Of a stretch of 64,000 bases of DNA, positions 15,586-57,495 are shown in pieces. The notes beneath the pieces are model-generated. The model saw nothing but the letters and a program-made list of their open reading frames with translations. It was not told where the DNA came from and searched no databases. The stretch comes from a virus (Duplodnaviria > Caudoviricetes): the IMG/VR virus record IMGVR_UViG_3300031992_002338, one strand, 5' to 3'. The translations under genes and the position numbers were made by a program. Position 1 is the first letter of the stretch. Every line of letters begins with the position of its first letter.

Positions 15586-16768
15586 CAGATTCCTCCTCAG
15601 AAAACTCTACCTCATTTTCATTAACATTAGAACCGCCATTTAAATTTTCTAAACTAGATAAAATGTCTTTTATGCAATCTTTCTTGTATTTATCTAATAG
15701 TTCTGGATTTAACAAACCATTATGAACGCAAGCAATTTCTCCAGTATATGTTACATTCCAAGGTGTTGGGAGTTGGTTTTTAGTTACCCTACATTTAGTT
15801 ACAATTCCATATTGGTATTTTTCACCTTTTGCAGTTGCTTCTAGTTTTTTCACTGATGCCTTACCAATACCTCCCATATGGATAACTAACCTTGCCCCAT
15901 AAAACATAGTCTTTCCTCCTTTAAGTTCTATACTTGGTGCAGCACCTGGCATACTTCCCATTGAATCTGACCATATCTTATTCACACAGAAAAATGTATT
16001 TGTATAATGTTCACTAACTTTTCTTGATGATGGTATTCTATTGTTTATAATCGAATTAAACGACTCAGACATCGCACCTGCGTTGAACATATTATTATTT
16101 CTCTTAGATGCATAAGATTTAAATGATTCTATAGAGCCAATTGAATCCCAAATAAAACACAACGGCTTCGTTATTTTGCCCTCATCTTGATAATCAAGAA
16201 ATTCATTTATTGCATACGCAATATCCTCAAGAACTGCAACTTTACGTTTTTGTTTAGATTTCCCACCAGTTGAATAATCATTGTCACCGTATCTGTCTGC
16301 TAGTATTTTATTATCCATATATATGAAATCCCCATCATAGTCTATAATACGATTTTCAGTGTGATAGGTAATCTCCCCAGTCTCCTCATCTACATCTTCA
16401 ACTTCCACATCACCATAAACTGGCGTTGCTTTCATCCCACAATCTATGGCATATTTGAAATCAAAATTACCCTCTGTCTCAAATATAATTGGCATTATCC
16501 CATTATTGATACAACTTGCAATTAGGCAGTTTTTAATTGTTGATTTACCAGTATTAGACCATCCAGTTACAATGGTTAAATATCCCATAGGAATTCCTGG
16601 AAGTTTAAGCGCATCTGCAAAAGCTTGTGGTAGCGCAATAAATTCTGTTGGTTTCTCTGCTGCTGATTTAACTAAATCATCATTCGACTTAACAGTTAAG
16701 CCTATCTGTTCTTTAAAACTTTTAATATCAAACTTTTTGAATTCCTTTTTCTTAATAGGTTGTTTCAT
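15578..16768 (-). CDS. recA: RecA/UvsX-like recombinase
   Basis: Walker A GWSNTGKST, FETEG, IWDSIGS Walker B, KGGK, KN motif. Confidence 0.82.
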   Translation of the reverse strand: MKQPIKKKEFKKFDIKSFKEQIGLTVKSNDDLVKSAAEKPTEFIALPQAFADALKLPGIPMGYLTIVTGWSNTGKSTIKNCLIASCINNGIMPIIFETEGNFDFKYAIDCGMKATPVYGDVEVEDVDEETGEITYHTENRIIDYDGDFIYMDNKILADRYGDNDYSTGGKSKQKRKVAVLEDIAYAINEFLDYQDEGKITKPLCFIWDSIGSIESFKSYASKRNNNMFNAGAMSESFNSIINNRIPSSRKVSEHYTNTFFCVNKIWSDSMGSMPGAAPSIELKGGKTMFYGARLVIHMGGIGKASVKKLEATAKGEKYQYGIVTKCRVTKNQLPTPWNVTYTGEIACVHNGLLNPELLDKYKKDCIKDILSSLENLNGGSNVNENEVEFSEEESDD

Positions 16769-16809
16769 AACTATTTATAAATTTACGTAAATTATTCATT
16801 TTTTGTTTT

Positions 16810-17865
16810 TTAACATTTATTTAAGATTTCCTTTAATTGTGCAAAATGTTTATCTCTTTCTATTATTTGTTTTGCATCTATATCATAGATTTTATTTTTT
16901 CTTCCAAAATCGTCAAATGCCTTATTAATTGTTCTCATAAAGATACGCCTTATGTATTCGTACATAGATGAGACTTTGAATTTCAACTTAACGAATGCTG
17001 ATTCTAGATTAATATCCCCCAATTTTGCTAATTTTATATATATCAATCCTAACTCTATTTCTTTGTTTTTATCTTGTTTATTATAAATTATATCATCAAT
17101 ATAGCTAAGATATTTTTGCACTGAAACCAATTTATCATATAAAGGAAAATCTTTTAAATAATCAACAAAATTATCTCTTGTTATTTTTTCGTTCTGCCTT
17201 ATAAATTCATAAAGCCTATTAGATTCGCTTATAATTTCATTTTTGCTAATATTGTAAAGCGAATAAACCATTTTATAATCATCATCCGAACTATTACCAA
17301 AAGCCATTAATTTTATCCAATTGCCATATTTTGATGATATTTCTTTTTCATTGGCAATATAACTATTATTTGATATGCAAATGTTGTAGAACCTAAACGC
17401 ATGATGAAGTTCATGAGCCATGCCCATAAAAAATTCGTTTTTACTTTCATTTGTTCTCAAATCATCATTTGTAATCCCAATTGTTATTTTCACATCATCT
17501 AATTTCAAATCTTTGGAAATTTTAGCATTGTCATAATCATTGATAAAATAACTTCCATGATAATTTAAGCCTTTTTTACTAGCCAATACATTAATATTAA
17601 CCGTTTTAATAAAGCACTCTGTTTTAATTTCATAATTCCTCAATCTATAAATTAAATATGAAATCTTCGAATCATAAGGCATTCCTTTTACTTTTATTAA
17701 TTCACCATAAATTTCATCAATTATCATATAATAATTGTCTATAATTCCTTGGCTTTCTCTTAAAAATTTTAATGATGGCGTTTCAGTTTTAAAAACGTCA
17801 CTTTCTGTTAATAAGAAATCTTCAAATAAATCATATATTGTATGTTTATTATAAAAATCACCCAT
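16810..17865 (-). CDS. Hypothetical protein with HExxH zincin motif and LxE-rich N-terminus
   Basis: MAHELHHAF; N-terminal LLTES and FLRES. Confidence 0.6.
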   Translation of the reverse strand: MGDFYNKHTIYDLFEDFLLTESDVFKTETPSLKFLRESQGIIDNYYMIIDEIYGELIKVKGMPYDSKISYLIYRLRNYEIKTECFIKTVNINVLASKKGLNYHGSYFINDYDNAKISKDLKLDDVKITIGITNDDLRTNESKNEFFMGMAHELHHAFRFYNICISNNSYIANEKEISSKYGNWIKLMAFGNSSDDDYKMVYSLYNISKNEIISESNRLYEFIRQNEKITRDNFVDYLKDFPLYDKLVSVQKYLSYIDDIIYNKQDKNKEIELGLIYIKLAKLGDINLESAFVKLKFKVSSMYEYIRRIFMRTINKAFDDFGRKNKIYDIDAKQIIERDKHFAQLKEILNKC

Positions 17866-18705: not shown

Positions 18706-19722
18706 TTAGAATGGCAAGTCCTCTTCCTCTTGAGCTTCCTCTGCCTTAGTTTCTGCTGTCATGGTAGTACCATCTATAATAATGCCATTACCGTTTATTG
18801 CTGAGTAATCTTTCGTTTCCTCTGTAAGTTCTTCTTCGATTCTCTTTTTCTCAGCCTCTTCCTTAATCTTATTCATTTCCTCCTTGTCAACATATTTGTT
18901 AAGTTCCTTGTTGAACACTGGAATGCCACCTTGTGCAATAATTGCCATGTAATCGTAAGACTTAACGGTATATACATCATACCAGTTCTTATCGTCTTGA
19001 ATCCATTCCATTCCAAGGTCAAAATCGTCAGTTAAAGGTGATGGGAATCCGTCATCTACAATCTGGATTGACGTCTTATTGTCTGCTGTCTTTGTAAGTG
19101 TAACAATAAGGTCAAGTCCATTGTTAAGGTCGAAAATACTGTAATTGTTTCCCTTTCTTGCAGCAGCTTCGGCACGAATCTTCGCAAGGTTCATAATTTT
19201 GTCGTAAACTCCGTCCTTCTTCTTTGAAGAGTTGAAGAGCCAAAATTTAACGCCATCTTCCTCGTGGTCACGTTCAATACAACGCACAATCCACATTTCC
19301 TTAACCTTGTTAAGGAATTCGATGTCACCGTATCTCTTCTTTGTACTCTCATCTAATGCTTTTGACTTTAACTCCTTTGCCTTTGCTGATGTCTCGCAGA
19401 AAGGACAACTGTCACCCATTACATCACCATCTTTCTTGTTGTGCGTAGGGCATACAAAAGTCTTCCAGCCGTTAGGTGCGACTTCTTTATTTACCTTTAC
19501 GGTGTGCATAAAAACTTTTTTGAAAGGACTACCGCCTTCTGGGGAGAAGGGTAGCAAACGAATTGTTAAGGTTTTTGATGTTTCCTTGTCACCCAATCTA
19601 GCTTGTAAATAATTCTTCTCGTTAAATTGAGTTTTTTTAGGTGTAAAAGTTTTTTGTTCTTGTTCATACTGATTTTTCACAGCTTCTGCGTCAATGTTAA
19701 CGCTAAAATTTTTGTTGTTCAT
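18706..19722 (-). CDS. Single-stranded DNA-binding protein (T4 gp32-like)
   Basis: IRLLP, zinc site H/C...CPFC, acidic C-terminus EEEDLPF; near recA. Confidence 0.8.
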   Translation of the reverse strand: MNNKNFSVNIDAEAVKNQYEQEQKTFTPKKTQFNEKNYLQARLGDKETSKTLTIRLLPFSPEGGSPFKKVFMHTVKVNKEVAPNGWKTFVCPTHNKKDGDVMGDSCPFCETSAKAKELKSKALDESTKKRYGDIEFLNKVKEMWIVRCIERDHEEDGVKFWLFNSSKKKDGVYDKIMNLAKIRAEAAARKGNNYSIFDLNNGLDLIVTLTKTADNKTSIQIVDDGFPSPLTDDFDLGMEWIQDDKNWYDVYTVKSYDYMAIIAQGGIPVFNKELNKYVDKEEMNKIKEEAEKKRIEEELTEETKDYSAINGNGIIIDGTTMTAETKAEEAQEEEDLPF

Positions 19723-19859: not shown

Positions 19860-20123
19860 CTAGAAGCGACTTTGCCATTCTCTAAAATCATATTGCCTAA
19901 AAATATAGGCAAGGCATTGTGCTAAAGTTTCATCACCAAGGCATCTTACAATGGCACTGTTAATTGTTTCCTCTCCCATTTCTTGAACGGCTAGATTATA
20001 AGCCTCTTGTGCTTCAGATGAATCAACAACCCATCCACCACTTTCAGCCTCTTTAATAATTCTATTTACAGATTCTTTCACAATGTTGTGAAGGTCTTTT
20101 TCGGTTAATCTCATTGTTTTCAT
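19860..20123 (-). CDS. Small protein with the shared LTExDL...VKESV leader (putative internal head protein)
   Basis: MKTMRLTEKDLHNIVKESVNRIIKE, nearly identical to the leader of 44643..44951. Confidence 0.7.
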   Translation of the reverse strand: MKTMRLTEKDLHNIVKESVNRIIKEAESGGWVVDSSEAQEAYNLAVQEMGEETINSAIVRCLGDETLAQCLAYIFRQYDFREWQSRF

Positions 20124-22785: not shown

Positions 22786-25700
22786 CTATTGTTTTCCGTT
22801 TCCTTTATACCTCCAAACGCTATAATTGCCTCTTGCTTTAAGATTTACTCTATTAAACTTAGTTTTATAATCAGAATACCATCCATCACCACACCACATT
22901 TGAATATGACCATGTTCATGGAATTCTCCTTCTATATAGTACTGACCAAATACTGTAATATCACCAAGACACATATCGCCATATGTTACACTTTCTTGTC
23001 CAGTGTATTCGCCTTTACTAATACATACAAACCCATTTTTCATTAAGAAGTCTTTTGCTTGATAAGCAGACCTAGATTCAGGTTTTTTAAAACCGCCTGC
23101 AACTAGTCCTTCTTTGACAAAATGCCAACACTTAGTACATCCATATTTTCTCCCACAATTTTTTAGATTATTTTTCATTGCATTTACACTATTAGCAACA
23201 TTCCAATCACCAATTTTTCCATCTTTAATATTACATTTTAAATCAGTTATGTTTATATCTTTTATGTCATTTGGTATGTTATCTTTGTTAAATATAGATT
23301 CGCAATCCTCTGGCATATATTTCTTCAAGAATTCAACAGCATGGCCCTTGTTATTTTTATCTTCAGCTTGTTTTATTTCCTTCACAAATATTGATTCCTT
23401 GTTAGATGACAACAATGTGCTAAGTCTTTTTGCCAATGGCTTAAGTAGTATTTCATTACCATCTGGTATCATTTGCAATGTATAGTTATCACCAATATAA
23501 TTGTTTTCTTGTGTAATCCACACCTTTTTCTTCGTCAAATCTACTTTGTCAGTAGCCTTAACCTTGAAATATATTGATGTTGGAGGGCATTTTGTTGTTA
23601 TTCCTCCATTAGGAAATACATATCCAAGTTCCTCGACATAATTATAATACTCGCTGTTCAAAATCATGTCAAAGACAGTACCAAGTTTTGAATTACCGCC
23701 ACCTTTCTGACTTATACTAAAATGACCAGGCATTTTTGATTCAACATATTCAAGCTCAACACCTATTGACGGAGTATTAATAGCAGATTTATTTACTGCA
23801 TCAAAAAATAACTTGCTGATATCTTTGACATCATTTGGATTCTTAGCTGGTTTAGAATCTTTTTCTAAAATATTAGAATTTCTTTTTTCATAAAATTCTT
23901 TAGCTTTACTTTTTCTACGACCTAATTTTGACTCTTTTGGGTTTGGATTTGGATTTTCATAACCATCATATTTTTTATTAGGGTTATTTCCGTTACAGAA
24001 AATATGAGCAGCCTCATCAGGTGTTTTAGCATTGGTTAATTTCGTCCATAATCTTTTTTGGTTATCGTTTTTGTTATCTCGTAATGATTTAATGACAAAT
24101 TTGCATTGATATTCAGCACTTTTTGTTTTTATTAGTTTTTTAACCGCATTAGCTTTATCTTCACTATATCTATCCTTTTCATAGTTAGTAGCATGACCAT
24201 AATTTTCATAATCATTTGTAAGCATTTGACTAAGCGTAAAAAATTTATCATTCCATTGACACAAACCACCAGCTACAAATCCGTTAGAATCATTTTCTTG
24301 TACAGTTTCAGGATTAAATGTTGGACTACCTTCAGTTTCGACAAACATATTTCCTACAATACCAGCTGCAATTATGTCAGCATTTCTAGCACTACTTCCA
24401 ATTTCATCTTTTAAAAACCCCATTAAAATTTTGGCCTTCTCAACATCATCTTTTGAAGAAGGGTCAAAATCATTTGTGCTGTTTAATGGATATATTTTAT
24501 ATTCGCAATCATTATCGATGCTAGCCTTAAGTGAGATGTCATCCATTTCATCATTATCAGTATATCTCTCATTTGGTGAAAAGTCATCATCTGTGAATAT
24601 ATCCTCAATCATTCTATTTGAGATATTAGCCATACGGCAGCCAGTGAAGGTTGTTGTCATATCACCAGGTTTTAGTGTATGCTTAACCTTCATAATCATG
24701 TATGAGCCTCTAAACATTGGAACATTTAACAGCACAAAGTACATTAATGGCTGAACCCAAGGGCATCCCATCATTTCAACGTCACAAGTGTATGATTGGG
24801 TTGAATAAATGTCATAAAGGTCTTGCGATGTTATTCCCCTTTCCTTTTGAGTTGCAGCTTGTTGGATTATAAAATGTTTTGCCTTTATTGCTTGCTCCGT
24901 AGCAATTGGGCTTTGCATGTTTATATTGACGGACTTGAAATAACTTTGGTATTGTTTTCCATATGAAACTCCAAATGCTGGTATCTTATACATAGCATCA
25001 GTCTTTGTTCTAATTGCTTTTGGCGTTTCACTTTCTTCATTAAGCATAAAGCCATCATCATTATATTCATTGTTGTTGACATTAAGATTCCTAGAAGGTT
25101 GGTATGGGTATACAACAACGAAACTAGGATACCTATTTACCTCAGTGCTGAAATTAATCGAATCTAATGGCATTGGAACAAACATCTTGTTCATTGAGTC
25201 TGAATCAGATAAATCAGAGAAATTCTGTATACACTTAAGCATACATTTGTTACTAGCATATACATCAGATATAAACCCTAACATCATGGCATTAACATCA
25301 CCAGTAGACAATATTGCATCAATTCTTTCTGATAGTTTTTTAGGGTTAATTAAAAGTATATCACCAATATAGTTATAATAAGAATCAATAAAATGGAACG
25401 TATGTCCAACCTCTGTATGGCCACTATTTGTGAAGAAAGTATCTAGATTCCAATTGTCAAAAGATGACATTGGTATCCATTTGTCATATACTTGTTTCAT
25501 ATATCTGTAAAGCTCTATCTTCATATCCTCAGTGGTATGCTTTGGATTCTCTGTGGTCTTCACTTGGCTTGTGTTTGTCTCATCATCATTTGTATTATTG
25601 GTATATTTGCTCTTCAACCTTTCTATGAATGCATCCAAGTATGATGTTACAATACCTTCAGCCACATAATAGCTATCATTGTTGACACTATGTTTTACAT

Positions 25701-28700
25701 TAATTGACATATTAAGTATTAAAACTGGTTTTAATAACTCGTTTGTCAATTTCTTAACATAGTCGATGTTTTGGTTTAATAACATTCTACTAGTTTCAAC
25801 ACTAGGTTTTATATAATTTGATTCATTTATTAAATTAGAATAAATTTTTTTAGCTGTATCTGTACAAGTTATCCAATCATAAAAGTACTTCGCATATTGA
25901 TACCTAACTTGTTCAGACATCTTAAATACTTCACTTGTTATGACCTTTGATAGAGTTTCCTTATTCAAAGACAAATTATATGCCATTTTATTAACCATCT
26001 CATCCAATGAAGCAAACTCTTTACTAATCCCACCAGTAGCAAAGCAATATATTCCTAATTTCAATGCACATAATTTTGGCATATATGTAAATGTTCTTTC
26101 ACATAAGTTATTGAACTCTGTGTTATTTGTTCTCATGCATAGAATTGCAATCGCGGCTTTAGATTGACTTTTTCCAATGCTCATATCGCCAAACGATAAC
26201 AAAGTTTGAATGTTTTCGTGGGTTTTAAAAAATGACCTTTCATCGTTTACACATTTTTTCTCATCTATACCAAAAACTTCAGATATTGTATATCTTGTCA
26301 AATTTCCTTGTTGAACTTCACTACCTATTGAACTGACATCATTGTTGTATACATGTTCTTCATTGCCACAAGTTATTTTAGCAAAATACCCTTCTATGGA
26401 AAATGTGGCAGTTTTTGCGTCTATCTTGATATTTGCTGTATTAACTACTGAAGAATAGCCTTTAACTGTCAAGAAAGATGCATATTTCTCATCATTGAAC
26501 GTAGAAGCAGATACTATTTTATTATAGTAATCATTATATGACTCATTATTATTAGAATTGGCATTATTCATGATTTCGGTTATGAAATCATACTTTTCAG
26601 TTATCATTATATTACCAAATCCATAATTAGTGTTTAATTCAGATGGGTTAGTGATAGTTGGAATAACTCGTAACGATATGTCATTATCACAACTTGATAT
26701 TTTCCCTTGGTTAAACATTGTTCTATGGCTATTTAGCTCATTAAATGATATATTCTGTATAGGATACATTGTATTTGTATATGTATCCTTTTTTATATTG
26801 TATGCATTAAGGATAATCCCATTAGATGACTTTGAGAACAATGCTTCATTACCCCAAGGACAATCTTTATTTTTACTTGTAGCCTTTTCTAATAGTAAGC
26901 TAGAAGTAATTATACCATCTTTAAGCATACCTAGGATATTTTCATTATTCAGCTTAACACAATGATAGAAATTATCTGCCTCCACAGCTCCTATGTTCCT
27001 TGCATTATCAGTAGTAATGAATGAAGTTCCAATGCTTTGCTTCAAATGATTTATCCCCAATATGTAATACATACGAAGTAAAACTTTTCCAGAAAACTGG
27101 AATAAATCTTTATCATTTGCTATGTCTTTGGAATCACCATATGGATTTTTTGAAATGAAAAAGTCAAACGCGGACAAAGGATGTTCTATCACCTTGCCAA
27201 TAGACAAATCTGTTGTTGGCACGTTTTTTAACTCCTCTGCAAGCATATTTTCAGTATCTCCCCTCAATGATTGTAGTTTTTCTATCGCATTAAAGAACCC
27301 ATCAATGAAATCAACCTCTTCGAATGCCTTTTCACCTCTGTTGTATTCACCAACCCAAGTGTCCTCGATTCTTGTTATATTGTCATCACCAACGACATTC
27401 TTTGTGACACGAGGGAATGGAGGTACTACATCTTTTGCGGAATTAACATCTATGCAAATACCATTTGGACCAGTTGTTACACCAAGTTCACTAGCTTTTC
27501 TACCTTCACAATTTGATACTGTTGTATACATCAGATACATCAACGTCTCCAAATGGGCAATAACTATTCTAGTGAAATTTTCAACAGTTGGATACCAAAT
27601 CATTCTGCTGAACATTTCCTTATTAATTTCCTTTATCTTCTTCCTCTTTAACTTTTCCTTTTCATTTACGTTGGCATCTATCTGAAGGTCTTTTATCCTA
27701 TCTGTTATGTCACTATAATCTTGATTAATCGCATAACATTTAATATATTGCTCTTCTCCGTCATTATATATAGTATTTAAGATATGCTTTTTATGTTTTA
27801 TGTATTTTTCATTTATATCACTAGTAGTACCGCTAGTATTATCATAGTTAACACCATAAAACACATTTCTGATTACTTCTGATTCTGGAATTTTACAATT
27901 TTCATCAAAGCCATAAAATACAACTTGATTTTTCTTGCCAACTTCTGTTCTCTTAAAAAGAGGATTCAAAATATAATCCCCAAAATCAATGCTTACGTTT
28001 TCTAATTTTTTGAAATTCCTATCATCTTTGTTGAAATTTTCTATTGCTGCATGCAAATCTTTATTCAACTTTTTGAAACTATCTGGATATTGTTCATAAT
28101 CACCATCTAATGAAAATGCGGAATCATCTTTGGCTAATATTATTATTCTGTTGTATTCATCATTATTAGTCTTTCTTTTAAATAAAAAACAATAATCTTT
28201 CCCATACTTCTCACAGCATATATTGAACAATGATTTATACCACGTTTGATACAATGACTTGATATTAGTGAGTTTTTCAATTTCTTCTTCATGAGTATTT
28301 TCTTCATCAGTAATTGCTGTTTCAACGCTTATAGGTTTACTTAGCAAACTCTGCATTTCTTGCCAAATCTCAAACAATGTTGGCATTTCCATCCTTTCGG
28401 TTTTTTCCTTGTTCCAAATGGTAAAATGGCCAGATTTCTTTTGTCTATCCCAATATGCATTATAATTTCCATTCTTACCGCAATAATCTGAGTAAGGAGC
28501 AGCAAGCAATGCATCAATTGAAATATCAGTCAAAAATGAATAACTATATCCAATAAACCTTGTTGTAATGTCAAAATCGCCAGTATTGGAATTGAATTTG
28601 GTGTCAAACTTATCACACATAACCTCATACGTAACTGGTTTACCATAAAACCCTTTTATAGTTATGGTAAACTTTGGCATTGGTATTCTGAAAAAACATT

Positions 28701-29262
28701 GAAAGAAAGACTGTGCTACATTATCTGAATTTATACCAGCTATACCTTGATACGCATTTGTTCTACTTAATTCTGTTGGCTGAAATAATGATAAACCCCT
28801 TACATCAGTGAACTTAACCGTTATTGTTGGCACACAAGCATTTACGTATTCCACATCAACAGACTTTACACCAATCATTTCTGTAGTGCCATAGTCAATT
28901 AAATCACCAACGTACATATCAGAATAATTTGTTGTCAAATATGGGATTTCAGTATTCTTTGAATCACCACACTTAACTTTCGTCCCACCCATGAAATTTA
29001 CAGTAGAGCCACTTTCCCCAACCTTAGTCCTATAGGACATTATTAAGACTTCGTTTGCTATCGTCTTGTTGGCTGAAATGTTTTCCCTTCCACATACTTC
29101 AACCTCTATGTTGAAATATATGGAATAGTCCTCAAGTCTAGGAGTTCTAGAATAATCATCATCTTTGGACTTCCAAGGAATTGTATTAGAATTATACGCC
29201 TTAAATTCCCCAACTGACGAGATATTAGGCTCAACATAGTTGACCATTGAATGATGTGCCAT
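22786..29262 (-). CDS. Large baseplate hub / tail-associated protein with lysozyme and amidase domains
   Basis: Hub-like segment (CDVEMMG...GSYMIMKVKH...TTFTG); phage tail lysozyme-like AAGIVGNMFVE...GLCQW; C-terminal Cys/His amidase-like KCWHFV...GHIQMW...WYSD. Confidence 0.7.
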   Translation of the reverse strand: MAHHSMVNYVEPNISSVGEFKAYNSNTIPWKSKDDDYSRTPRLEDYSIYFNIEVEVCGRENISANKTIANEVLIMSYRTKVGESGSTVNFMGGTKVKCGDSKNTEIPYLTTNYSDMYVGDLIDYGTTEMIGVKSVDVEYVNACVPTITVKFTDVRGLSLFQPTELSRTNAYQGIAGINSDNVAQSFFQCFFRIPMPKFTITIKGFYGKPVTYEVMCDKFDTKFNSNTGDFDITTRFIGYSYSFLTDISIDALLAAPYSDYCGKNGNYNAYWDRQKKSGHFTIWNKEKTERMEMPTLFEIWQEMQSLLSKPISVETAITDEENTHEEEIEKLTNIKSLYQTWYKSLFNICCEKYGKDYCFLFKRKTNNDEYNRIIILAKDDSAFSLDGDYEQYPDSFKKLNKDLHAAIENFNKDDRNFKKLENVSIDFGDYILNPLFKRTEVGKKNQVVFYGFDENCKIPESEVIRNVFYGVNYDNTSGTTSDINEKYIKHKKHILNTIYNDGEEQYIKCYAINQDYSDITDRIKDLQIDANVNEKEKLKRKKIKEINKEMFSRMIWYPTVENFTRIVIAHLETLMYLMYTTVSNCEGRKASELGVTTGPNGICIDVNSAKDVVPPFPRVTKNVVGDDNITRIEDTWVGEYNRGEKAFEEVDFIDGFFNAIEKLQSLRGDTENMLAEELKNVPTTDLSIGKVIEHPLSAFDFFISKNPYGDSKDIANDKDLFQFSGKVLLRMYYILGINHLKQSIGTSFITTDNARNIGAVEADNFYHCVKLNNENILGMLKDGIITSSLLLEKATSKNKDCPWGNEALFSKSSNGIILNAYNIKKDTYTNTMYPIQNISFNELNSHRTMFNQGKISSCDNDISLRVIPTITNPSELNTNYGFGNIMITEKYDFITEIMNNANSNNNESYNDYYNKIVSASTFNDEKYASFLTVKGYSSVVNTANIKIDAKTATFSIEGYFAKITCGNEEHVYNNDVSSIGSEVQQGNLTRYTISEVFGIDEKKCVNDERSFFKTHENIQTLLSFGDMSIGKSQSKAAIAILCMRTNNTEFNNLCERTFTYMPKLCALKLGIYCFATGGISKEFASLDEMVNKMAYNLSLNKETLSKVITSEVFKMSEQVRYQYAKYFYDWITCTDTAKKIYSNLINESNYIKPSVETSRMLLNQNIDYVKKLTNELLKPVLILNMSINVKHSVNNDSYYVAEGIVTSYLDAFIERLKSKYTNNTNDDETNTSQVKTTENPKHTTEDMKIELYRYMKQVYDKWIPMSSFDNWNLDTFFTNSGHTEVGHTFHFIDSYYNYIGDILLINPKKLSERIDAILSTGDVNAMMLGFISDVYASNKCMLKCIQNFSDLSDSDSMNKMFVPMPLDSINFSTEVNRYPSFVVVYPYQPSRNLNVNNNEYNDDGFMLNEESETPKAIRTKTDAMYKIPAFGVSYGKQYQSYFKSVNINMQSPIATEQAIKAKHFIIQQAATQKERGITSQDLYDIYSTQSYTCDVEMMGCPWVQPLMYFVLLNVPMFRGSYMIMKVKHTLKPGDMTTTFTGCRMANISNRMIEDIFTDDDFSPNERYTDNDEMDDISLKASIDNDCEYKIYPLNSTNDFDPSSKDDVEKAKILMGFLKDEIGSSARNADIIAAGIVGNMFVETEGSPTFNPETVQENDSNGFVAGGLCQWNDKFFTLSQMLTNDYENYGHATNYEKDRYSEDKANAVKKLIKTKSAEYQCKFVIKSLRDNKNDNQKRLWTKLTNAKTPDEAAHIFCNGNNPNKKYDGYENPNPNPKESKLGRRKSKAKEFYEKRNSNILEKDSKPAKNPNDVKDISKLFFDAVNKSAINTPSIGVELEYVESKMPGHFSISQKGGGNSKLGTVFDMILNSEYYNYVEELGYVFPNGGITTKCPPTSIYFKVKATDKVDLTKKKVWITQENNYIGDNYTLQMIPDGNEILLKPLAKRLSTLLSSNKESIFVKEIKQAEDKNNKGHAVEFLKKYMPEDCESIFNKDNIPNDIKDINITDLKCNIKDGKIGDWNVANSVNAMKNNLKNCGRKYGCTKCWHFVKEGLVAGGFKKPESRSAYQAKDFLMKNGFVCISKGEYTGQESVTYGDMCLGDITVFGQYYIEGEFHEHGHIQMWCGDGWYSDYKTKFNRVNLKARGNYSVWRYKGNGKQ

Positions 29263-44001: not shown

Positions 44002-44020
44002 CAACTAGAATCCTATTTTT
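43986..44020. terminator. Bidirectional terminator overlapping two convergent stop codons
   Basis: AAAAATAGGATTCTA-N5-TAGAATCCTATTTTT. Confidence 0.75.
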
Positions 44021-44528
44021 GTTTTAACTGCTCTTCTAATAACACTTTAACACCACTACAATCTTTATCATAATCTGACTCCCATATCTCTATAAGATTA
44101 ATTCCATTTTCACTGCAATATTCTCTCAACTCATTATCCTTAGTAACTTTTTTCTTTTGGTATTCACTAAGTTTATCATTAGAATATTTATTAGGGTTTC
44201 CATGCCAATAGTCACCTTGAAACTCAATAATCATATTTTTACTAGGAATATATACATCACAATAATGATGGATGTCTTTCAAATAATACTGGGTATCGTA
44301 ATCAATCCCTAACGGTTTAATACAATATTCTATAAATTCTTTTTCTTTTTTAGATGATAAAGAAAATTCTGTTTCTGTTAACATTCTATACATTTTCTCC
44401 CTATTTTTTAGAATAGAATTTTCGCTTCTACCGTTTTGTCTGCATTTTTCAGCGTGTTCTTTAGATTTTGGCACACCTTTAAGTTTAGCCGCTATTTTAC
44501 TATTTCTGCTTTCATCAGAATAATTTTT
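44013..44528 (-). pseudogene. 3' half of the IS-interrupted homing endonuclease (NUMOD3-like plus Vsr/DUF559 nuclease)
   Basis: In frame with 46042..46628 once the IS and one TSD are removed; CDVYIP...IEFQGDYWH. Confidence 0.85.
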
Positions 44529-44562
44529 GGCAATAACATTGCAGTTGGCACAACTATATGTT

Positions 44563-44592
44563 AAATGCAGTCAGAAATGACTGCATTTTTTT
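44563..44592. terminator. Hairpin inside the IS left end
   Basis: AAATGCAGTCA-GAAA-TGACTGCATTT plus T-run. Confidence 0.75.
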
Positions 44593-44642
44593 ACCTATAG
44601 TGATATTTATTATTAAAATAATGAATTAATACGTATTATAAT

Positions 44643-44951
44643 ATGAATAAGAAACTAATTAGATTAACAGAAAGTGACCTTCATAGAATTGTGAAAGAGT
44701 CGGTTAATAGAGTGTTAAAAGAAGGTGAAAGAAGACCATTCTTGAAACAAGCATATGAAAACTTGCTTCAAGCAATGTCTGATTTTGAATATAGTTTAGA
44801 AGGAAGATATGATATGGAAGGCGAAGGAGTCAATAAGATACTGCAATCATTCAAAATGACACAAGAAGCCGTAGATGATTTTGTTAGGCATCCTGACCTT
44901 GGAGGTAGTTATAAAATATGGGATAGACCAACAGAATATCCATTCTTTTAA
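44643..44951 (+). CDS. IS cargo protein with the phage LTESDL...VKESV leader
   Basis: MNKKLIRLTESDLHRIVKESVNRVLKE; GATATTTAT at 44602-44610; stop overlaps the transposase stop. Confidence 0.75.
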   Translation: MNKKLIRLTESDLHRIVKESVNRVLKEGERRPFLKQAYENLLQAMSDFEYSLEGRYDMEGEGVNKILQSFKMTQEAVDDFVRHPDLGGSYKIWDRPTEYPFF

Positions 44952-45934
44952 GCAGCCATCAACCCAACTCTGATTTCAGACCACTTACGAACCAAGCCAA
45001 TGGACTTGTCAAACATATGGGCGAATCGTTCTGATTCGCTCATTTTTCTTGTATTCCAACGATACACTGCCTCGTCAATGTAGTGCTGAAGGTGTTCGTC
45101 AGATACATCGTGATAGCAGCCGACAATCATACGTCTGAAATGACTCCAAAAGCCCTCAATGCTGTTGGTGAATACGTCACCATTGGCATACTCTTCAGCA
45201 CCGTGAGCAACAACAGCATGGGTATAACCCAACTCAGCAAGCCCATTATAGGCTGATAGTTCATCAGTGATGACTCTTGAACTATCAGCAACAAACTGCT
45301 GAATGATAGGCTGCAATGTATCCCTATTCGTGTTCTCCACAACGAATGCGTGAACATAGGTGATGTTCTCAATCTCACCCTTCTCATTCTCAAAGGTGCT
45401 ACGCTCCATCATACCGAAGACTGGTGTCTTGGTCTTCGTGGAACGACCTTGGGTCTTGGGGGTACGCATTGACTTGTGCTTCCATTTCTCCTTGCCACCG
45501 ATGTATACCTCGTCACACTCCACAGTGCCTTCAAATGAATCTGCGTCACTCTGAGGGTAGAGCAGACGCACCTTCTGAAGCATATACCAGGCTGTATTCT
45601 GAGTTACCTCAATGTTCCTTGCAAGTTGATAGGAACTGATACCCTTCTTATGAGAAGAGATAAAATACATAGCCAAGAACCACTTGATGAGTGGCAACTT
45701 GGTATTCTCAAAGATAGTACCAACGAGGCAAGAAAAGTTCTTGTTGCACTCTGTGCAATGGAAACGTCCATTCTTTGACATCTTGCAGTGATGCTTACCG
45801 CAATAAGGGCAAACAACGTCTTGTTCCTTACCAACACCCCAACGACTCTCTATGATGGCTTGCTTGCATTTGTCATCAGAGGTGAAATACGATGTGAGTG
45901 AGATAACGCTGTTGAACTTCTTGAAATTAATCAT
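44948..45934 (-). CDS. IS1595-family DDE transposase
   Basis: CPYC...CTEC zinc ribbon, HTH, ECDEVYIGG, ITDELSAY, NSIEGFWS, YIDEAVYRWN; own -7 element TATCTTTG at 45960-45967. Confidence 0.93.
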   Translation of the reverse strand: MINFKKFNSVISLTSYFTSDDKCKQAIIESRWGVGKEQDVVCPYCGKHHCKMSKNGRFHCTECNKNFSCLVGTIFENTKLPLIKWFLAMYFISSHKKGISSYQLARNIEVTQNTAWYMLQKVRLLYPQSDADSFEGTVECDEVYIGGKEKWKHKSMRTPKTQGRSTKTKTPVFGMMERSTFENEKGEIENITYVHAFVVENTNRDTLQPIIQQFVADSSRVITDELSAYNGLAELGYTHAVVAHGAEEYANGDVFTNSIEGFWSHFRRMIVGCYHDVSDEHLQHYIDEAVYRWNTRKMSESERFAHMFDKSIGLVRKWSEIRVGLMAA

Positions 45935-46041
45935 ATTGCTATTGTTTCTTAAACTATAGCAAAGATATGAAAAAAGTCCAGCGAATGCTGAACTTTCATA
46001 CGTATAAGAGATTATTTTGTGCCAAGTGCGATGTTATTGCC

Positions 46042-46628
46042 TAATTTTTTATCAACTCTTTTATTTTATCTTCCGTATAGGTTTCTTCCCAAGACTTACC
46101 TTTATTCCATTGTATTCTTTCCCCATTTTTATATTGCCTCCTTCTAGTCTCGGCAGAATGTAGTTTTGCTTGTTCATTATGACCCCAATTATTATGTACC
46201 CTAGAATGATGACCACGTATATAATCTGCAAAATGGACACCGCCGTCATATCTTATTTCAGTATATTCTCCGCACCCACATTTACATTTTGGCCTAATAC
46301 CGCCATATTTGTAATCAGTTAGCAATTGCTCTTGAGTAATAGAATCACTATGCTCTTTATACCTAAATATGTGTTTGCATAACCCATTATAGGTCTCAAA
46401 CCTTTTATCGCAATATGGGCATTTATATTCGCCATAATTTTTTTGCTGATTGGTGAATTCGCTAGAATATTTAAAGGTAAAACCATTTACTTGTTTTAAT
46501 TTACCTAAACAACATTTAGATATGTTGCTTTTAGTGGATTCTATAGCATTTGCCGCATCCGTTGCAGAATTGTATACTGCAACTTGTTCTCCATCTTTAA
46601 ACTGTATAATTTGTTTTTTTAACCCCAT
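46042..46628 (-). pseudogene. 5' half of the IS-interrupted homing endonuclease (NUMOD1-like HTH, C2H2 finger, CKCGCG)
   Basis: The TAG stop is created at the IS junction; promoter at 46663-46694. Confidence 0.85.
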
Positions 46629-47415: not shown

Positions 47416-49074
47416 ATGGTGGATAAAAAAGCGAAATTCATTGAAAAGGCAAAAAATAGACATGGGGAAAAATACGACTATTCTAAAGTGGAATATGTTG
47501 ATAGTTTAACAAAAGTATGTATTATCTGCAAAGAACATGGCGAATTCTGGCAAACACCACAAGGTCATGTAAGGGGTCAAGGATGCCCAAAATGTGCAAA
47601 TATAAAAAGGGGTGATACATTTAGGTCTGATGGCGATACATTTATTAAACGTGCCACTATTTTGCATGATGGTAAATACATATACGACAAAGACTCTTAT
47701 GTTAATGCAATGACAAAAGTTCCAATACTTTGCTTAAAACACGGAACATTCTGGATGACTCCAATGAATCACCTACTAGGTCAAGGTTGTCCTAAATGCA
47801 GTGGTAGGGGATTAAACACTGAAGAGGTTATAGAACTGTTTAAGGAGAAACATGGTGATAACTATGATTATTCCAAAGTCGTATTTACTAAAATGCATGA
47901 AAAGGTTTGTATAATCTGCAAAGAACATGGTGAATTCTGGCAAACCCCTAGCAAGCATATTTTAGGTCAAGGATGCCCAAAATGCAGTGGCATTAAAAAA
48001 GCAAAAGAAAGGATGTTAACAACAAATGATTTTATTGAAAAATCTTCGAAAATTCACAACAATAAATACGTTTATGATAAAACAGAATATAAAGGTACAT
48101 ATGAATCGCTTACAATAACTTGCCCCATTCACGGAGATTTTACACAAAGGGCGAATGACCACCTCAATGGTCACGGATGTCCAATATGCGGCAACAATAT
48201 GTCGCTTGCTGAGAAAGAAATTGAAGATTACATTAAATCTTTTGGTGTTAAAACTGAAACTAAAATTAGAGGTATACTAAGCAATAACAAAGAAATTGAT
48301 ATATTAATGCCAGAATTAAACATAGGAATTGAATATAATGGATTAAAATGGCACTCTGATGAATTTAAAGATAAAAATTATCATCTAAATAAAACAGAAG
48401 AATGTAAAAAATTAGGAATACGACTTGTTCACATCTTTGAAGATGAATGGATGAATAAAAAGGAAATTATTAAAAGCATTATACGCAATATAATCGGTAA
48501 AACTGAAAATAAAATATATGCTAGAAAATGCATCATTCAAAATGTTAATGACAATGAAAAAAAAGAATTTTTAGAAAAAAATCATATACAAGGAAATATT
48601 AATTCACAAATAAATTTAGGACTATATCACGATGGTGAACTAGTATCATTAATGTGCATCGGTAAACCTAGAATCAATTTAGGTAGAAAAACATCACTAG
48701 AAGATGAATATGAACTCTTACGTTTTTGTAATAAACTTAATACAAATATTGTTGGTGGTGCAAGTAAACTATTTAAATATTTTATAACAAACTATAGTCC
48801 AACGCTAATAACATCCTACTGCGATTATAGATGGAGCATTGGTAATATGTATGAAGCATTGGGATTTACTTTATCCCATCATTCACAACCAAACTACTAT
48901 TACATAATTGGCAATAATAGAAAAAATAGATTTAAATATAGAAAATCAGAATTGATTAAAGAAGGTTTTGACCCAGAAAAATCAGAAAAAGAAATAATGG
49001 AAGAAAAAGGAATACACCGAATATACGATTGTGGGTCATTGGTATATACATGGAAAAATGAGGGTAGAAATTAA
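47416..49074 (+). CDS. Hef-like putative homing endonuclease (four zinc-ribbon repeats, nuclease, GNAT-like C-terminus)
   Basis: Four HGxKYDYSK...CxxHGxFWQTP...GCPKC repeats; IDI...IEYNGLKWH; IYARKC...HIQG...RFC...RIYDCG. Confidence 0.75.
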   Translation: MVDKKAKFIEKAKNRHGEKYDYSKVEYVDSLTKVCIICKEHGEFWQTPQGHVRGQGCPKCANIKRGDTFRSDGDTFIKRATILHDGKYIYDKDSYVNAMTKVPILCLKHGTFWMTPMNHLLGQGCPKCSGRGLNTEEVIELFKEKHGDNYDYSKVVFTKMHEKVCIICKEHGEFWQTPSKHILGQGCPKCSGIKKAKERMLTTNDFIEKSSKIHNNKYVYDKTEYKGTYESLTITCPIHGDFTQRANDHLNGHGCPICGNNMSLAEKEIEDYIKSFGVKTETKIRGILSNNKEIDILMPELNIGIEYNGLKWHSDEFKDKNYHLNKTEECKKLGIRLVHIFEDEWMNKKEIIKSIIRNIIGKTENKIYARKCIIQNVNDNEKKEFLEKNHIQGNINSQINLGLYHDGELVSLMCIGKPRINLGRKTSLEDEYELLRFCNKLNTNIVGGASKLFKYFITNYSPTLITSYCDYRWSIGNMYEALGFTLSHHSQPNYYYIIGNNRKNRFKYRKSELIKEGFDPEKSEKEIMEEKGIHRIYDCGSLVYTWKNEGRN

Positions 49075-50976: not shown

Positions 50977-52611
50977 TTAGTCTTCCTCTTTTCTTTTCCA
51001 TTCATACCTTAACAATCCGCAATCATATATTCTATAAAAACCAAGATACTCTGTCATTTGTTTTTCAGTCCATTCCAATGGTACACCATATTTCTTATTT
51101 AATTTGGCTTTTCTATATCCGAATTTATGCTCCCTTTTCTGACCGTTTACATATCTATAATCTGGTGCCAATTCCTCTGCCAATTCAAATCCTAGTTCTG
51201 TATATACATTATGCTCTTTTGAAAGCGTCCAACGTCTATCAGCGAATGATTTTACATATATTGGATTATATGCTGTCAGAAAGGCTTTAAATAGCTTTCC
51301 AGCCACTCCTATACATCTTATACTATTATCAGTTGCAAATCTTGTCAAATTCCAATTGTCTTTACTTTCTTGAGTAAAAAGCATTACACCAACTAATTTG
51401 CTCTCATAAAAACACCCAAATGCAACAGATGAATCCACAGAACCTTGAATGTGGTTTTTATCTAAAAATTCATATGCAAGGTGTTTATCTATTTCTTTTA
51501 CTTCGCATTTTCTTGCGTATATTTTCTCTCCATCATTAAATCCTAATATGTGTTTTATTTTTCTTAAAACAATTTCTTGTCTTTCAATCCACTCGTCTTC
51601 AAATATCTGGATTAATCTTATACCTTTCTCATTACATTTAATAAGTTTGTTTAAATGATAATTCTTATCCTTATTAAATTCTTCTGAATGCCATCTAAGA
51701 CCGTTATATTCAATTGCAGTATGTAATTTTGGTATATAAATATCTAATTCTAAACCATCCAAGACGCTCCTATCTCTTCTAATGACCTCATCTTTAGGGA
51801 TAAAATTACATATATATTCATATAATTCAATTTCTGATTTGGATAAAAAATGTGAACAACTTGCGCATCCCTTTCCTTGCAAATGGTCATGAGGCGTTTG
51901 CCAAAACTCTCCGTGACTAGGACAAATAATACAAACCTTTGTCACACTATCTATGTATTCTACTTTGGAATATTCATACTTATCTCCATGAATTTGTTTT
52001 GCTTTTGCAATAAAATCATTTGTATTTGACTTAATATTACCACTGCACATAGGACATCCGTTTCCTTTAAAATGCTTGTTTGGCGTTTGCCAAAATTCTC
52101 CGTGAATTGGACAAATAATACAAACTTTAGTATGATTATTAGTATAACTAACTTTGGAATAATCGTATTTGTTCTTGTGAATTTTTTCCGCAGCTTCGAC
52201 AAATAATGCTTTGTCTTTCTTCATATTACCACTGCATTTTGGGCATCCTTGACCTTGAATATGAGATAATGGCCTTTGCCAAAACTCTCCATGCCTCGGA
52301 CATATAATGCATACCTTTTCTTGACATAAATTATAATCTACCTTAGAATAATCATATTTATCTCCATGTACTTTTTTAGCTTCACAAATAAACTGCTCAG
52401 TTGTCTTTTTGTATTTGTTAGATAATATTTTATATCTACACTTGGAGCAACCTTGGCCATTCAAATGGTTATAAGGTTTTTGCCAGAATTCGCCATGCTC
52501 TTTGCATATTACACAAATTTTTTCTTTAGGATTTATGTAAATAGATTTGGAATAATCATATTTATCTCCATGTACTTTTTTAGCTTTTTCAATAAATTCT
52601 TCTGTATTCAT
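50977..52611 (-). CDS. Hef-like putative homing endonuclease, paralog of 47416..49074
   Basis: Same four-repeat, nuclease and C-terminal domain layout; promoter at 52660-52691; hairpin at 50962-50992. Confidence 0.75.
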   Translation of the reverse strand: MNTEEFIEKAKKVHGDKYDYSKSIYINPKEKICVICKEHGEFWQKPYNHLNGQGCSKCRYKILSNKYKKTTEQFICEAKKVHGDKYDYSKVDYNLCQEKVCIICPRHGEFWQRPLSHIQGQGCPKCSGNMKKDKALFVEAAEKIHKNKYDYSKVSYTNNHTKVCIICPIHGEFWQTPNKHFKGNGCPMCSGNIKSNTNDFIAKAKQIHGDKYEYSKVEYIDSVTKVCIICPSHGEFWQTPHDHLQGKGCASCSHFLSKSEIELYEYICNFIPKDEVIRRDRSVLDGLELDIYIPKLHTAIEYNGLRWHSEEFNKDKNYHLNKLIKCNEKGIRLIQIFEDEWIERQEIVLRKIKHILGFNDGEKIYARKCEVKEIDKHLAYEFLDKNHIQGSVDSSVAFGCFYESKLVGVMLFTQESKDNWNLTRFATDNSIRCIGVAGKLFKAFLTAYNPIYVKSFADRRWTLSKEHNVYTELGFELAEELAPDYRYVNGQKREHKFGYRKAKLNKKYGVPLEWTEKQMTEYLGFYRIYDCGLLRYEWKRKEED

Positions 52612-56274: not shown

Positions 56275-56319
56275 TAACAAATTTCATTAATTGATTATTA
56301 TGGGTAAATATTTCACCTT

Positions 56320-57374: not shown

Positions 57375-57401
57375 ATATTTTAAACTATTTTTTTATTTTT
57401 G

Positions 57402-57495
57402 TTATTTTATAATAAATATCATGGCATATCAAAAAAATGCAGCCAAAAATGACTGCATTTTATAGAATAGTTGTGCCAACTGCGATGTTATCACC
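57402..57495 (-). mobile_element. Solo IS1595 left-end module (TIR, hairpin, late motif)
   Basis: GGTGATAACATCGCAGTTGGCACAA is 22/25 identical to the left TIR, followed by AAATGCAGTCA-N4-TGGCTGCATTTTTTT and GATATTTATTAT as in 44529-44620. Confidence 0.8.

Follow-up and report, generated by a model that had tools for sequence, protein, structure and literature searches.

A passenger-carrying IS1595-family insertion sequence in phage and Prevotella genomes

We examined a 64,000-nt stretch of the virus record IMGVR_UViG_3300031992_002338 (referred to as the window), in which positions 44529-46041 are occupied by an insertion sequence (IS) of the IS1595 family that has a passenger gene between its terminal inverted repeats (TIRs) and was recently inserted into a homing endonuclease gene (HEG) of the phage. 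It likely represents a passenger-carrying IS1595 clade of rumen Prevotella and other Bacteroidales that shuttles phage accessory genes. According to the explanation proposed here, the compact 1513-bp element would belong to a "transporter" IS clade resident in the chromosomes of these bacteria, which would jump repeatedly into the jumbo phages infecting them, and the copy in the window would have transposed as a single unit into a non-essential phage HEG. Beside a transposase gene with a host-type promoter, it would bring an insulated cassette in which an inward-facing terminator hairpin next to the left inverted repeat (IRL) precedes a phage-type promoter motif and a member of a very large family of phage genes. 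This family is defined by a conserved N-terminal peptide of 27 residues (here called the tag), and a terminator for its member would lie inside the transposase gene. Selection would keep the tag peptide, the remainder of the protein (the body) would be exchanged between copies by recombination, and the IS would carry accessory genes of phages back and forth between these phages and the chromosomes of their hosts.

Identity and recent insertion of the element

The element, 1513 bp in size, was assigned to the IS1595 family because of full Pfam and NCBIfam matches of its transposase, its TIRs, and an 8-bp target site duplication (TSD). The transposase gene (44948-45934, minus strand) appears to be intact and encodes a 328-aa protein that matches DDE_Tnp_IS1595 (PF12762; 2.1e-45, profile positions 3-153 of 153), Zn_ribbon_IS1595 (PF12760; 5.5e-9, transposase residues 19-65) and NCBIfam NF033547 (3.6e-58, profile positions 1-215 of 215), and its open reading frame (ORF) is 91-98% identical to copies in Prevotella metagenome-assembled genomes (MAGs). 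IRL (GGCAATAACATTGCAGTTGGCACAA; 44529-44553, plus strand) and the right inverted repeat (IRR; 46017-46041, minus strand) form a pair of 25-bp TIRs with 2 mismatches (0 such matches are expected in shuffled sequence), and members of the same 25-mer family delimit elements at more than 30 loci. The whole 1513 bp is bracketed by a perfect 8-bp TSD, TAATTTTT, whose identical copies (no strand assigned) lie at 44521-44528 on the left and 46042-46049 on the right; perfect AT-rich TSDs of this length were found in 25 of the 30 elements with both TIRs, the flanks of which range from 0.32 to 0.58 in GC content. Short TIRs combined with an 8-bp direct duplication are as expected for the IS1595 family, and the location of the cargo gene (44643-44951) inside the TIRs, with the TSD around the full unit, is that of a passenger-carrying IS. 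A reading of the TIR (TTGGCAC...) as a sigma-54 promoter was rejected, since it has no -12 element and forms one half of an inverted pair with a TSD. The preliminary description of this DNA had already recognized an IS1595 element with TIRs and a passenger gene inside them, and the features that it stated are all present, while the TSD, the split host gene, the second terminator of the cargo and a solo left end elsewhere in the window had escaped it.

The insertion into a phage HEG is real and recent. On the minus strand, an ORF at 46041-46628 encodes the N-terminal 195 aa of this HEG (NUMOD-like and zinc finger regions, based on the ORF and family matches), and its TAG stop codon is composed of the TSD and the first base of the IS. 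The C-terminal part with the nuclease domain (44013-44528, minus strand) follows in frame when the IS and one TSD copy are removed, and it includes a 153-aa ORF (44013-44474) that matches the nuclease part of phage homing endonucleases (PHROG homing and HNH families). We regard the insertion as recent because such an in-silico excision joins the two parts into a 364-aa HEG ORF and because the empty site exists: three related phage contigs (L107-L109, 91-99% identical) carry an intact 364-aa HEG in which the target sequence occurs once and the junction peptide is unchanged. An independent ENA assembly shows the identical insertion context, and an assembly chimera was rejected on the basis of the TSD, the empty sites in relatives and this second assembly. 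Another compact copy of the element, 95.6% identical, was found in a different flank (L147); together with the empty site, the full-length profile matches and the intact ORF, it indirectly suggests that the element may be able to transpose. No DNA match to the window was detected in the INPHARED phage collection. Two more full-length HEGs are located between the tail tube and sheath genes (47416-49074, plus strand, and 50977-52611, minus strand; matches to phrog_559/3339 with E-values down to 1e-172), so that three HEGs, counting the split one, lie within 8 kb.

The passenger cassette and its variable bodies

The cassette begins with a perfect hairpin just inside IRL, which has an 11-bp stem (44563-44573 paired with 44578-44588), a 4-nt loop and a subsequent T7 run (44563-44595 as a whole, plus strand; -14.9 kcal/mol, z -6.1). 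This hairpin, whose perfect stem had been noted in the preliminary description, is kept beside IRL in both viral and bacterial copies and represents a putative inward-facing, terminator-like insulator. It is followed by the promoter-type motif GATATTTAT (44602-44610, plus strand), 32 nt 5' of the cargo ATG. The window contains 12 copies of this motif compared with 2.7 expected, and 9 of the 12 precede the start of a same-strand ORF by no more than about 60 nt, the sheath gene being one such case. The earlier claim that the motif precedes structural genes thus holds for the sheath gene, and for the tube gene only in the form of the variant TATATTTAT. Among the IS copies, GATATTTAT was found 20-30 nt before the ATG of the tag gene in 10 viral and 6 chromosomal cases. 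Behind most of the motifs in the window, only a few bases away, lies another AT-rich box that resembles TAT(A/T)AAAATAA (for example, at 44611-44625, 56275-56290 and 57395-57411), which recalls the T4 late promoter TATAAATA.

The 102-aa cargo gene (44643-44951, plus strand) was found behind the hairpin and the motif as previously described. Its first 27 codons (44643-44723) encode the tag, MNKKLIRLTESDLHRIVKESVNRVLKE, and its body has no known family; searches of the cargo, the long passengers of other IS copies and additional ORFs of larger copies (see below) against Pfam, PHROG and NCBIfam did not identify any family. The cargo and transposase genes are convergent, and their stop codons share 2 nt (TTAA), an overlap that had also been reported correctly. 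A hairpin with a T-rich tail (45017-45053, plus strand; -15.2 kcal/mol, z -4.2) is positioned to serve the cargo gene, and its hairpin portion (45017-45043) is embedded in approximately codons 294-307 of the transposase gene, so that the predicted terminator of the cargo would be hidden in the last approximately 35 transposase codons. On the other side, the transposase ATG is preceded at a distance of 25 nt by TATCTTTG (45960-45967, minus strand), a match to TAnnTTTG, which we take to be the Bacteroidota -7 promoter element; this agrees with the host-type element assigned to the transposase before. Such a match is present upstream of the ATG in 31 of 52 related copies, 20-47 nt away in 30 of them and usually at 25-30 nt. 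A weaker hairpin with a T6 run lies just inside IRR (45969-45994, minus strand; -10.4 kcal/mol, z -2.7) and may act as an inward-facing insulator upstream of the transposase promoter.

Comparison of the bodies behind the tag revealed 48 unrelated clusters among 53 copies, with the tag and the promoter motif constant, which was the outcome anticipated in the preliminary description for a vehicle that spreads such genes among phages. When the IS of the window was aligned with its closest relatives (82-92% identical in transposase DNA), nucleotide homology extended from IRR exactly to the stop codon of the transposase, was not detectable in the body, returned over the tag (in some copies over the promoter as well) with a break exactly at the tag end, and appeared again over the hairpin and IRL. 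This mosaic pattern suggests that the bodies have probably been exchanged, with the tag/promoter segment and the tail of the transposase gene as homology arms.

Several copies lack a complete transposase gene. In ten viral loci, the only transposase remnant is located beside a tag gene and starts at residues 291-297, just past the cargo hairpin. In the locus L146, a 114-nt transposase tail fused directly to an IRR lies behind the cargo, which makes it a cassette without transposase, and internal transposase deletions were found in L018 and L015. L146 (1-1899) has the same 102-aa cargo at 95.5% nucleotide identity, directly behind a 173-aa gene of the tag family whose stop codon lies 6 nt before the cargo ATG. 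A different form is seen in L004 (5227-6436), a 1210-bp element between an IRR-type repeat and an IRL-type repeat with the hairpin, which encodes no transposase and contains a 352-aa ORF without a recognized family. L146, L018 and L004 fit the definition of mobile insertion cassettes (MICs), that is, units bounded by TIRs and without transposase.

The window itself contains a further remnant, a solo IRL with its hairpin (57425-57495, minus strand), which is approximately 80-85% identical to the left end of the IS over about 90 bp. It is situated 26 nt past the stop codon of a 609-aa fibre-like gene and just before the promoter motif of a 205-aa gene, and it is absent from the syntenic region of the relatives L152-L162. 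It appears to act as the terminator of the fibre gene. A search for relatives of the 205-aa gene did not find any. A second and more distant IS1595-type transposase gene, 53% identical and with an in-frame TGA, is present in G001, the closest large relative (15981-16871, at the edge of L155), and G002 likewise has a second copy (55% identical).

Copies in phages and bacteria, and the tag family

The scan of viral contigs with the transposase identified 20 loci, and that of prokaryotes (one genome per species) identified 78; about 56 bacterial loci were examined for layout. All 20 viral loci, and most of the bacterial loci examined, have the transposase gene followed by a convergent tag gene. 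In the viral loci, this applies to copies with a full-length or an internally deleted transposase as well as to those that retain just its last 32-38 codons. Nearly all of the 78 prokaryotic loci belong to Prevotella or other Bacteroidales of the rumen or gut (identity up to 98%), and the closer bacterial copies mostly carry a convergent tag gene within the TIRs of elements that are typically 2.4-2.7 kb long. A transposase with a convergent gene starting with MNKKLIRLTESDLHRIVKESV was observed in approximately 20 phage contigs and 45 Prevotella/Bacteroidales contigs, two cultured isolates among them; in the isolate Prevotella sp. MA2016, the element is situated among genes for a cyclophilin, a PDZ-protease and a GH43 protein. 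The preliminary description had considered the element a phage-adapted transposon and had named homologous IS copies with the same cargo and leader in bacterial chromosomes as the observation that would speak against this view. Such copies were found: the tag gene also lies within TIRs in chromosomes of Prevotella, in elements with perfect TSDs (as in MA2016), and the transposase of the window nests within Prevotella copies. Because this layout is common in bacterial chromosomes, a phage-specific adaptation is unsupported.

The copies in phages appear to have come repeatedly from such chromosomal elements. In a maximum-likelihood tree of 52 full-length transposases, 7 of which are phage-borne, every phage copy nests among chromosomal copies, the copy in the window is sister to four copies from Prevotella MAGs, and the 7 phage-borne transposases require 7 independent switches, all of which are forced by well-supported branches. 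Passengers are also shared across this boundary, as the cargo bodies of a phage copy (L015) and a copy in a Prevotellaceae MAG (L038) are 98.9% identical.

The passenger itself looks phage-derived because of its low GC content, the enrichment of GATATTTAT inside the IS and the copy numbers of tag genes. Its GC content is 0.32-0.34 in every context compared with 0.43-0.46 for the transposase gene, even where the flanks reach 0.57-0.60, and in the bacterial loci GATATTTAT occurs at 0.257 per kb inside the IS versus 0.027 per kb outside, i.e., approximately ten times more densely. A 335-kb relative (G006, 96% complete) contains 26 tag genes and 1 transposase gene, and other phage fragments contain 4-9 tag genes each, whereas in five bacterial genomes the numbers of tag genes and transposases are equal and every tag gene adjoins a transposase.

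In the canonical 2.4-2.7-kb copies, the space between the tag gene and the IRL hairpin is occupied by a third ORF (151-178 aa; such as L030 3005-3532, L034 5869-6324 and L063 5784-6239), which is oriented divergently from the tag gene and belongs to no known family. In several of these copies, the short intergenic region beside it has inverted GATATTTAT motifs and TAnnTTTG. The compact copy in the window is without this ORF.

Within the window, the tag also occurs in an 87-aa resident paralogue that is not linked to the IS (19860-20123, minus strand; identified by BLASTP and nucleotide match). The N-terminus of the cargo matches this ORF with a BLASTP E-value of 4e-12 (23 of 50 residues identical overall and 17 of 21 in the core), and the two genes are 78% identical over 81 nt. 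The leader match claimed for this ORF was therefore genuine, and only the strand has to be corrected to minus. No IS remnant was found near the resident copy, whose neighbourhood is devoted to DNA metabolism (thymidine kinase and a UvsX-like recombinase). The operon is itself headed by GATATTTAT, and for this reason the late timing of expression that had been supposed for the cargo is not established. The interpretation of a 338-aa ORF in the vicinity (18706-19722) as a gp32-like single-stranded DNA-binding protein was dropped, since neither Pfam nor PHROG supported it.

More than 1900 predicted proteins have the tag, of which 1137 are of similar length to the query and 810 are longer. Pfam domains are almost absent among them, and for most the similarity to the query is confined to the first 27 residues. 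The tag closes at (V/I/L)xE, with a hydrophobic-x-E ending in 254 of 265 motifs, conservation stops directly after it, and nearly all tags have a Met six residues ahead of RLTE. The constraint acts on the peptide and not on a DNA or RNA site, because third codon positions vary freely and positions 1-2 are nearly fixed (entropy of 1.1-1.4 bits versus 0.4-0.7 bits in 59 distinct DNA copies); the possibility of a DNA-level element, such as a recombination site or an RNA element, was rejected on the same ground. Among the short homologues, 112 of 124 motifs are at the N-terminus, whereas 89 of 141 motifs in the longer proteins are internal. Many longer homologues (P0121-P0132 and others) are single ORFs with a tandem tag-body-tag-body organization in which the internal tag keeps its Met, and these could be polyproteins, gene fusions or missed stop codons. 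A profile of the tag family had no match in PDB, the ESM Atlas offered only weak helical look-alikes and unnamed viral clusters, and the AlphaFold model of the 286-aa passenger of L034 was of low confidence (pLDDT 56). Literature searches on the tag sequence and on the IS-phage association found no paper describing them.

Elsewhere in the window, a 2158-aa ORF (22786-29262, minus strand) without a PHROG match adjoins tape-measure-like and baseplate genes.

Alternative explanations and comparison with known systems

Our leading guess sees in the tag a docking or targeting peptide common to these proteins, possibly directed at the prohead, and capsid targeting is plausible in view of the peptide-level conservation of the tag, its (V/I/L)xE ending and the T4-type S77 protease of relatives. 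A specific version of this idea, which follows the preliminary description, regards the tag as a capsid leader similar to the capsid targeting sequence (CTS) of T4: the cargo would be made late, dock in the prohead core, be cut after Glu and be injected, and the IS would be a vehicle for effectors. We consider this version doubtful. The tag is constant, conserved as a peptide, N-terminal in most members and ends at (V/I/L)xE like the gp21 sites of T4 (PMC9026906), and the bodies are mutually unrelated, as are T4 internal proteins; the promoter motif is also common to the sheath gene. A gp21-type protease (Peptidase_S77, above the Pfam cut-off) is encoded by the relatives G001 and G004, and in G001 two tag genes are located 0.4-1.5 kb from the S77 gene, beside a protease-scaffold-capsid cluster. 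In G006, 8 of the 26 tag genes lie within 10 kb of a scaffold-like gene, where approximately 1.6 would be expected by chance. On the other hand, the tag is internal in 26 of the 53 IS-linked ORFs and in the tandem ORFs, the resident paralogue belongs to a DNA-metabolism operon headed by the same motif, the tag has 27 residues rather than the 10 of the T4 CTS and no sequence similarity to it, and a prohead protease was not found within the window. It is unlikely that the tag is a T4-type signal for prohead loading and processing in the widest sense, in which every tag gene would encode a packed and injected protein and the IS would trade effectors between Prevotella and phages, with chromosomal copies that retain the phage-type promoter, would be activated by an infecting phage and could place IS proteins in its progeny. 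In G006 (the record of L012), the scaffold-like gene at 220.2-221.8 kb is flanked by two groups of tag genes, one of five members and one of three (213.8-215.4 kb and 228.5-230.7 kb). A resemblance by eye between the tag and the N-terminus of a scaffold-like protein (MNKNIRSKVVKESL...) was not supported by hhalign (probability 0.3%).

Two other explanations place the tag protein on the side of the IS or of its bacterial host. The constantly convergent arrangement with overlapping or adjacent stop codons, the strict one-to-one association with the transposase in bacterial genomes and the transposase tails that persist beside tag genes in ten phage loci are what one would expect if the tag protein were an accessory of the IS (a regulator or partner of the transposase) and the tag genes of phages were debris of decayed insertions. 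This appears very unlikely, because G006 has 26 tag genes for a single transposase, the resident copy of the window has no IS remnant nearby, hypervariable bodies would be unexpected of a dedicated cofactor, and the passenger, with its low GC content and phage-type motif, is unlike the transposase gene; moreover, to our knowledge, other IS1595 members need no such accessory protein. We attach hardly any credence to the remaining idea that the chromosomal copies serve the host, with a passenger that fires on infection and disturbs phage assembly as a decoy or Trojan-horse defence, and that the phage copy is accidental. The phage-type motif kept upstream of chromosomal tag genes, a conserved N-terminal domain fused to the tag in these copies and hypervariable tails typical of conflict systems may point in this direction, whereas Pfam and NCBIfam recognized no defence family (PADLOC was not run) and phages themselves hold many such genes, apparently intact.

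With regard to the shuttling of phage accessory genes by a Prevotella/Bacteroidales IS clade, which we favour, several observations weigh against it. The "bacterial" contigs are mostly MAGs, and a few with low-GC flanks (L037, L047 and L076) are possibly mis-binned phage. The swapping of bodies is derived from unrelated bodies behind transposase DNA that is 87-92% identical, no donor-recipient pair having been caught, and the few bodies that belong to a shared family show an identity of no more than 25-53%, except for L015/L038. The frame is open for 90-250 aa upstream of the tag in the 26 IS-linked ORFs with an internal tag, which belong to a few conserved N-domain families; because half of the IS copies have the tag within such a longer ORF, the functional unit may be a larger protein than the 102-aa product. 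Finally, the direction of capture, from phage to IS, is suggested by composition and copy number and not by a rooted tree.

If the proposed explanation is correct, one IS1595 clade repeatedly brings a ready-to-express, insulated cassette taken from the largest small-gene family of the rumen jumbo phages themselves, and after decay of the transposase the useful fossils stay behind as cargo with terminator or as solo ends. This would point to a concrete route by which phage accessory genes turn over quickly and genes pass between Prevotella and its phages. In addition, the 27-residue peptide is singled out as a functional module common to otherwise unrelated metagenomic proteins, whose role in packaging or docking is directly testable, and interest would be higher if the tag were truly a packaging signal.

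Among known systems, the closest is the transporter IS (tIS) of the IS1595 family, defined as copies with passenger genes inside the inverted repeats (Siguier, Gagnevin & Chandler 2009, cited in PMC3129680). These tIS share with the present element the zinc-ribbon and DDE transposase, short TIRs starting with GG, 8-bp AT-rich duplications and a passenger between the repeats. Unlike them, the copy in the window has a passenger from a multi-copy phage gene family behind a phage-type promoter, with a terminator in the coding end of the transposase gene; the body differs in nearly every copy behind a constant 27-aa tag, and the clade resides in both host chromosomes and lytic-type jumbo phages. 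MICs, such as MIC231 of IS231 (De Palmenaer et al. 2004, cited in PMC3129680), are resembled by the relatives L146, L018, L015 and L004, which are bounded by TIRs and lack a working transposase, whereas the copy in the window encodes a complete transposase and is thus presumably the autonomous form rather than a MIC. The internal proteins of T4 (IPI-III and Alt) bear a CTS that is cleaved by the gp21 prohead protease (PMC9026906), and like them the tag proteins combine a short constant N-terminal peptide ending in hydrophobic-x-Glu with unrelated bodies, have several paralogues per genome and coexist with an S77 protease in relatives; they differ in the greater length and dissimilar sequence of the tag, its often internal or repeated position and its transposon-borne genes, and their packaging and cleavage are putative. 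With respect to IS in phages generally, Leclercq, Gilbert & Cordaux (2012, PMC3429520) concluded that phages have a low tolerance for IS and seldom shuttle them. The present IS likewise disrupts a dispensable gene within a phage genome, but in contrast to that conclusion, a single IS clade was encountered again in many jumbo-phage contigs that are related to each other, in the form of intact copies and of fossils that keep their cargo. What is unusual about this element is the nature of its passenger, the terminator hidden in the transposase gene, the pattern of a constant tag with variable bodies, and the recurrent residence in lytic-type jumbo phages.

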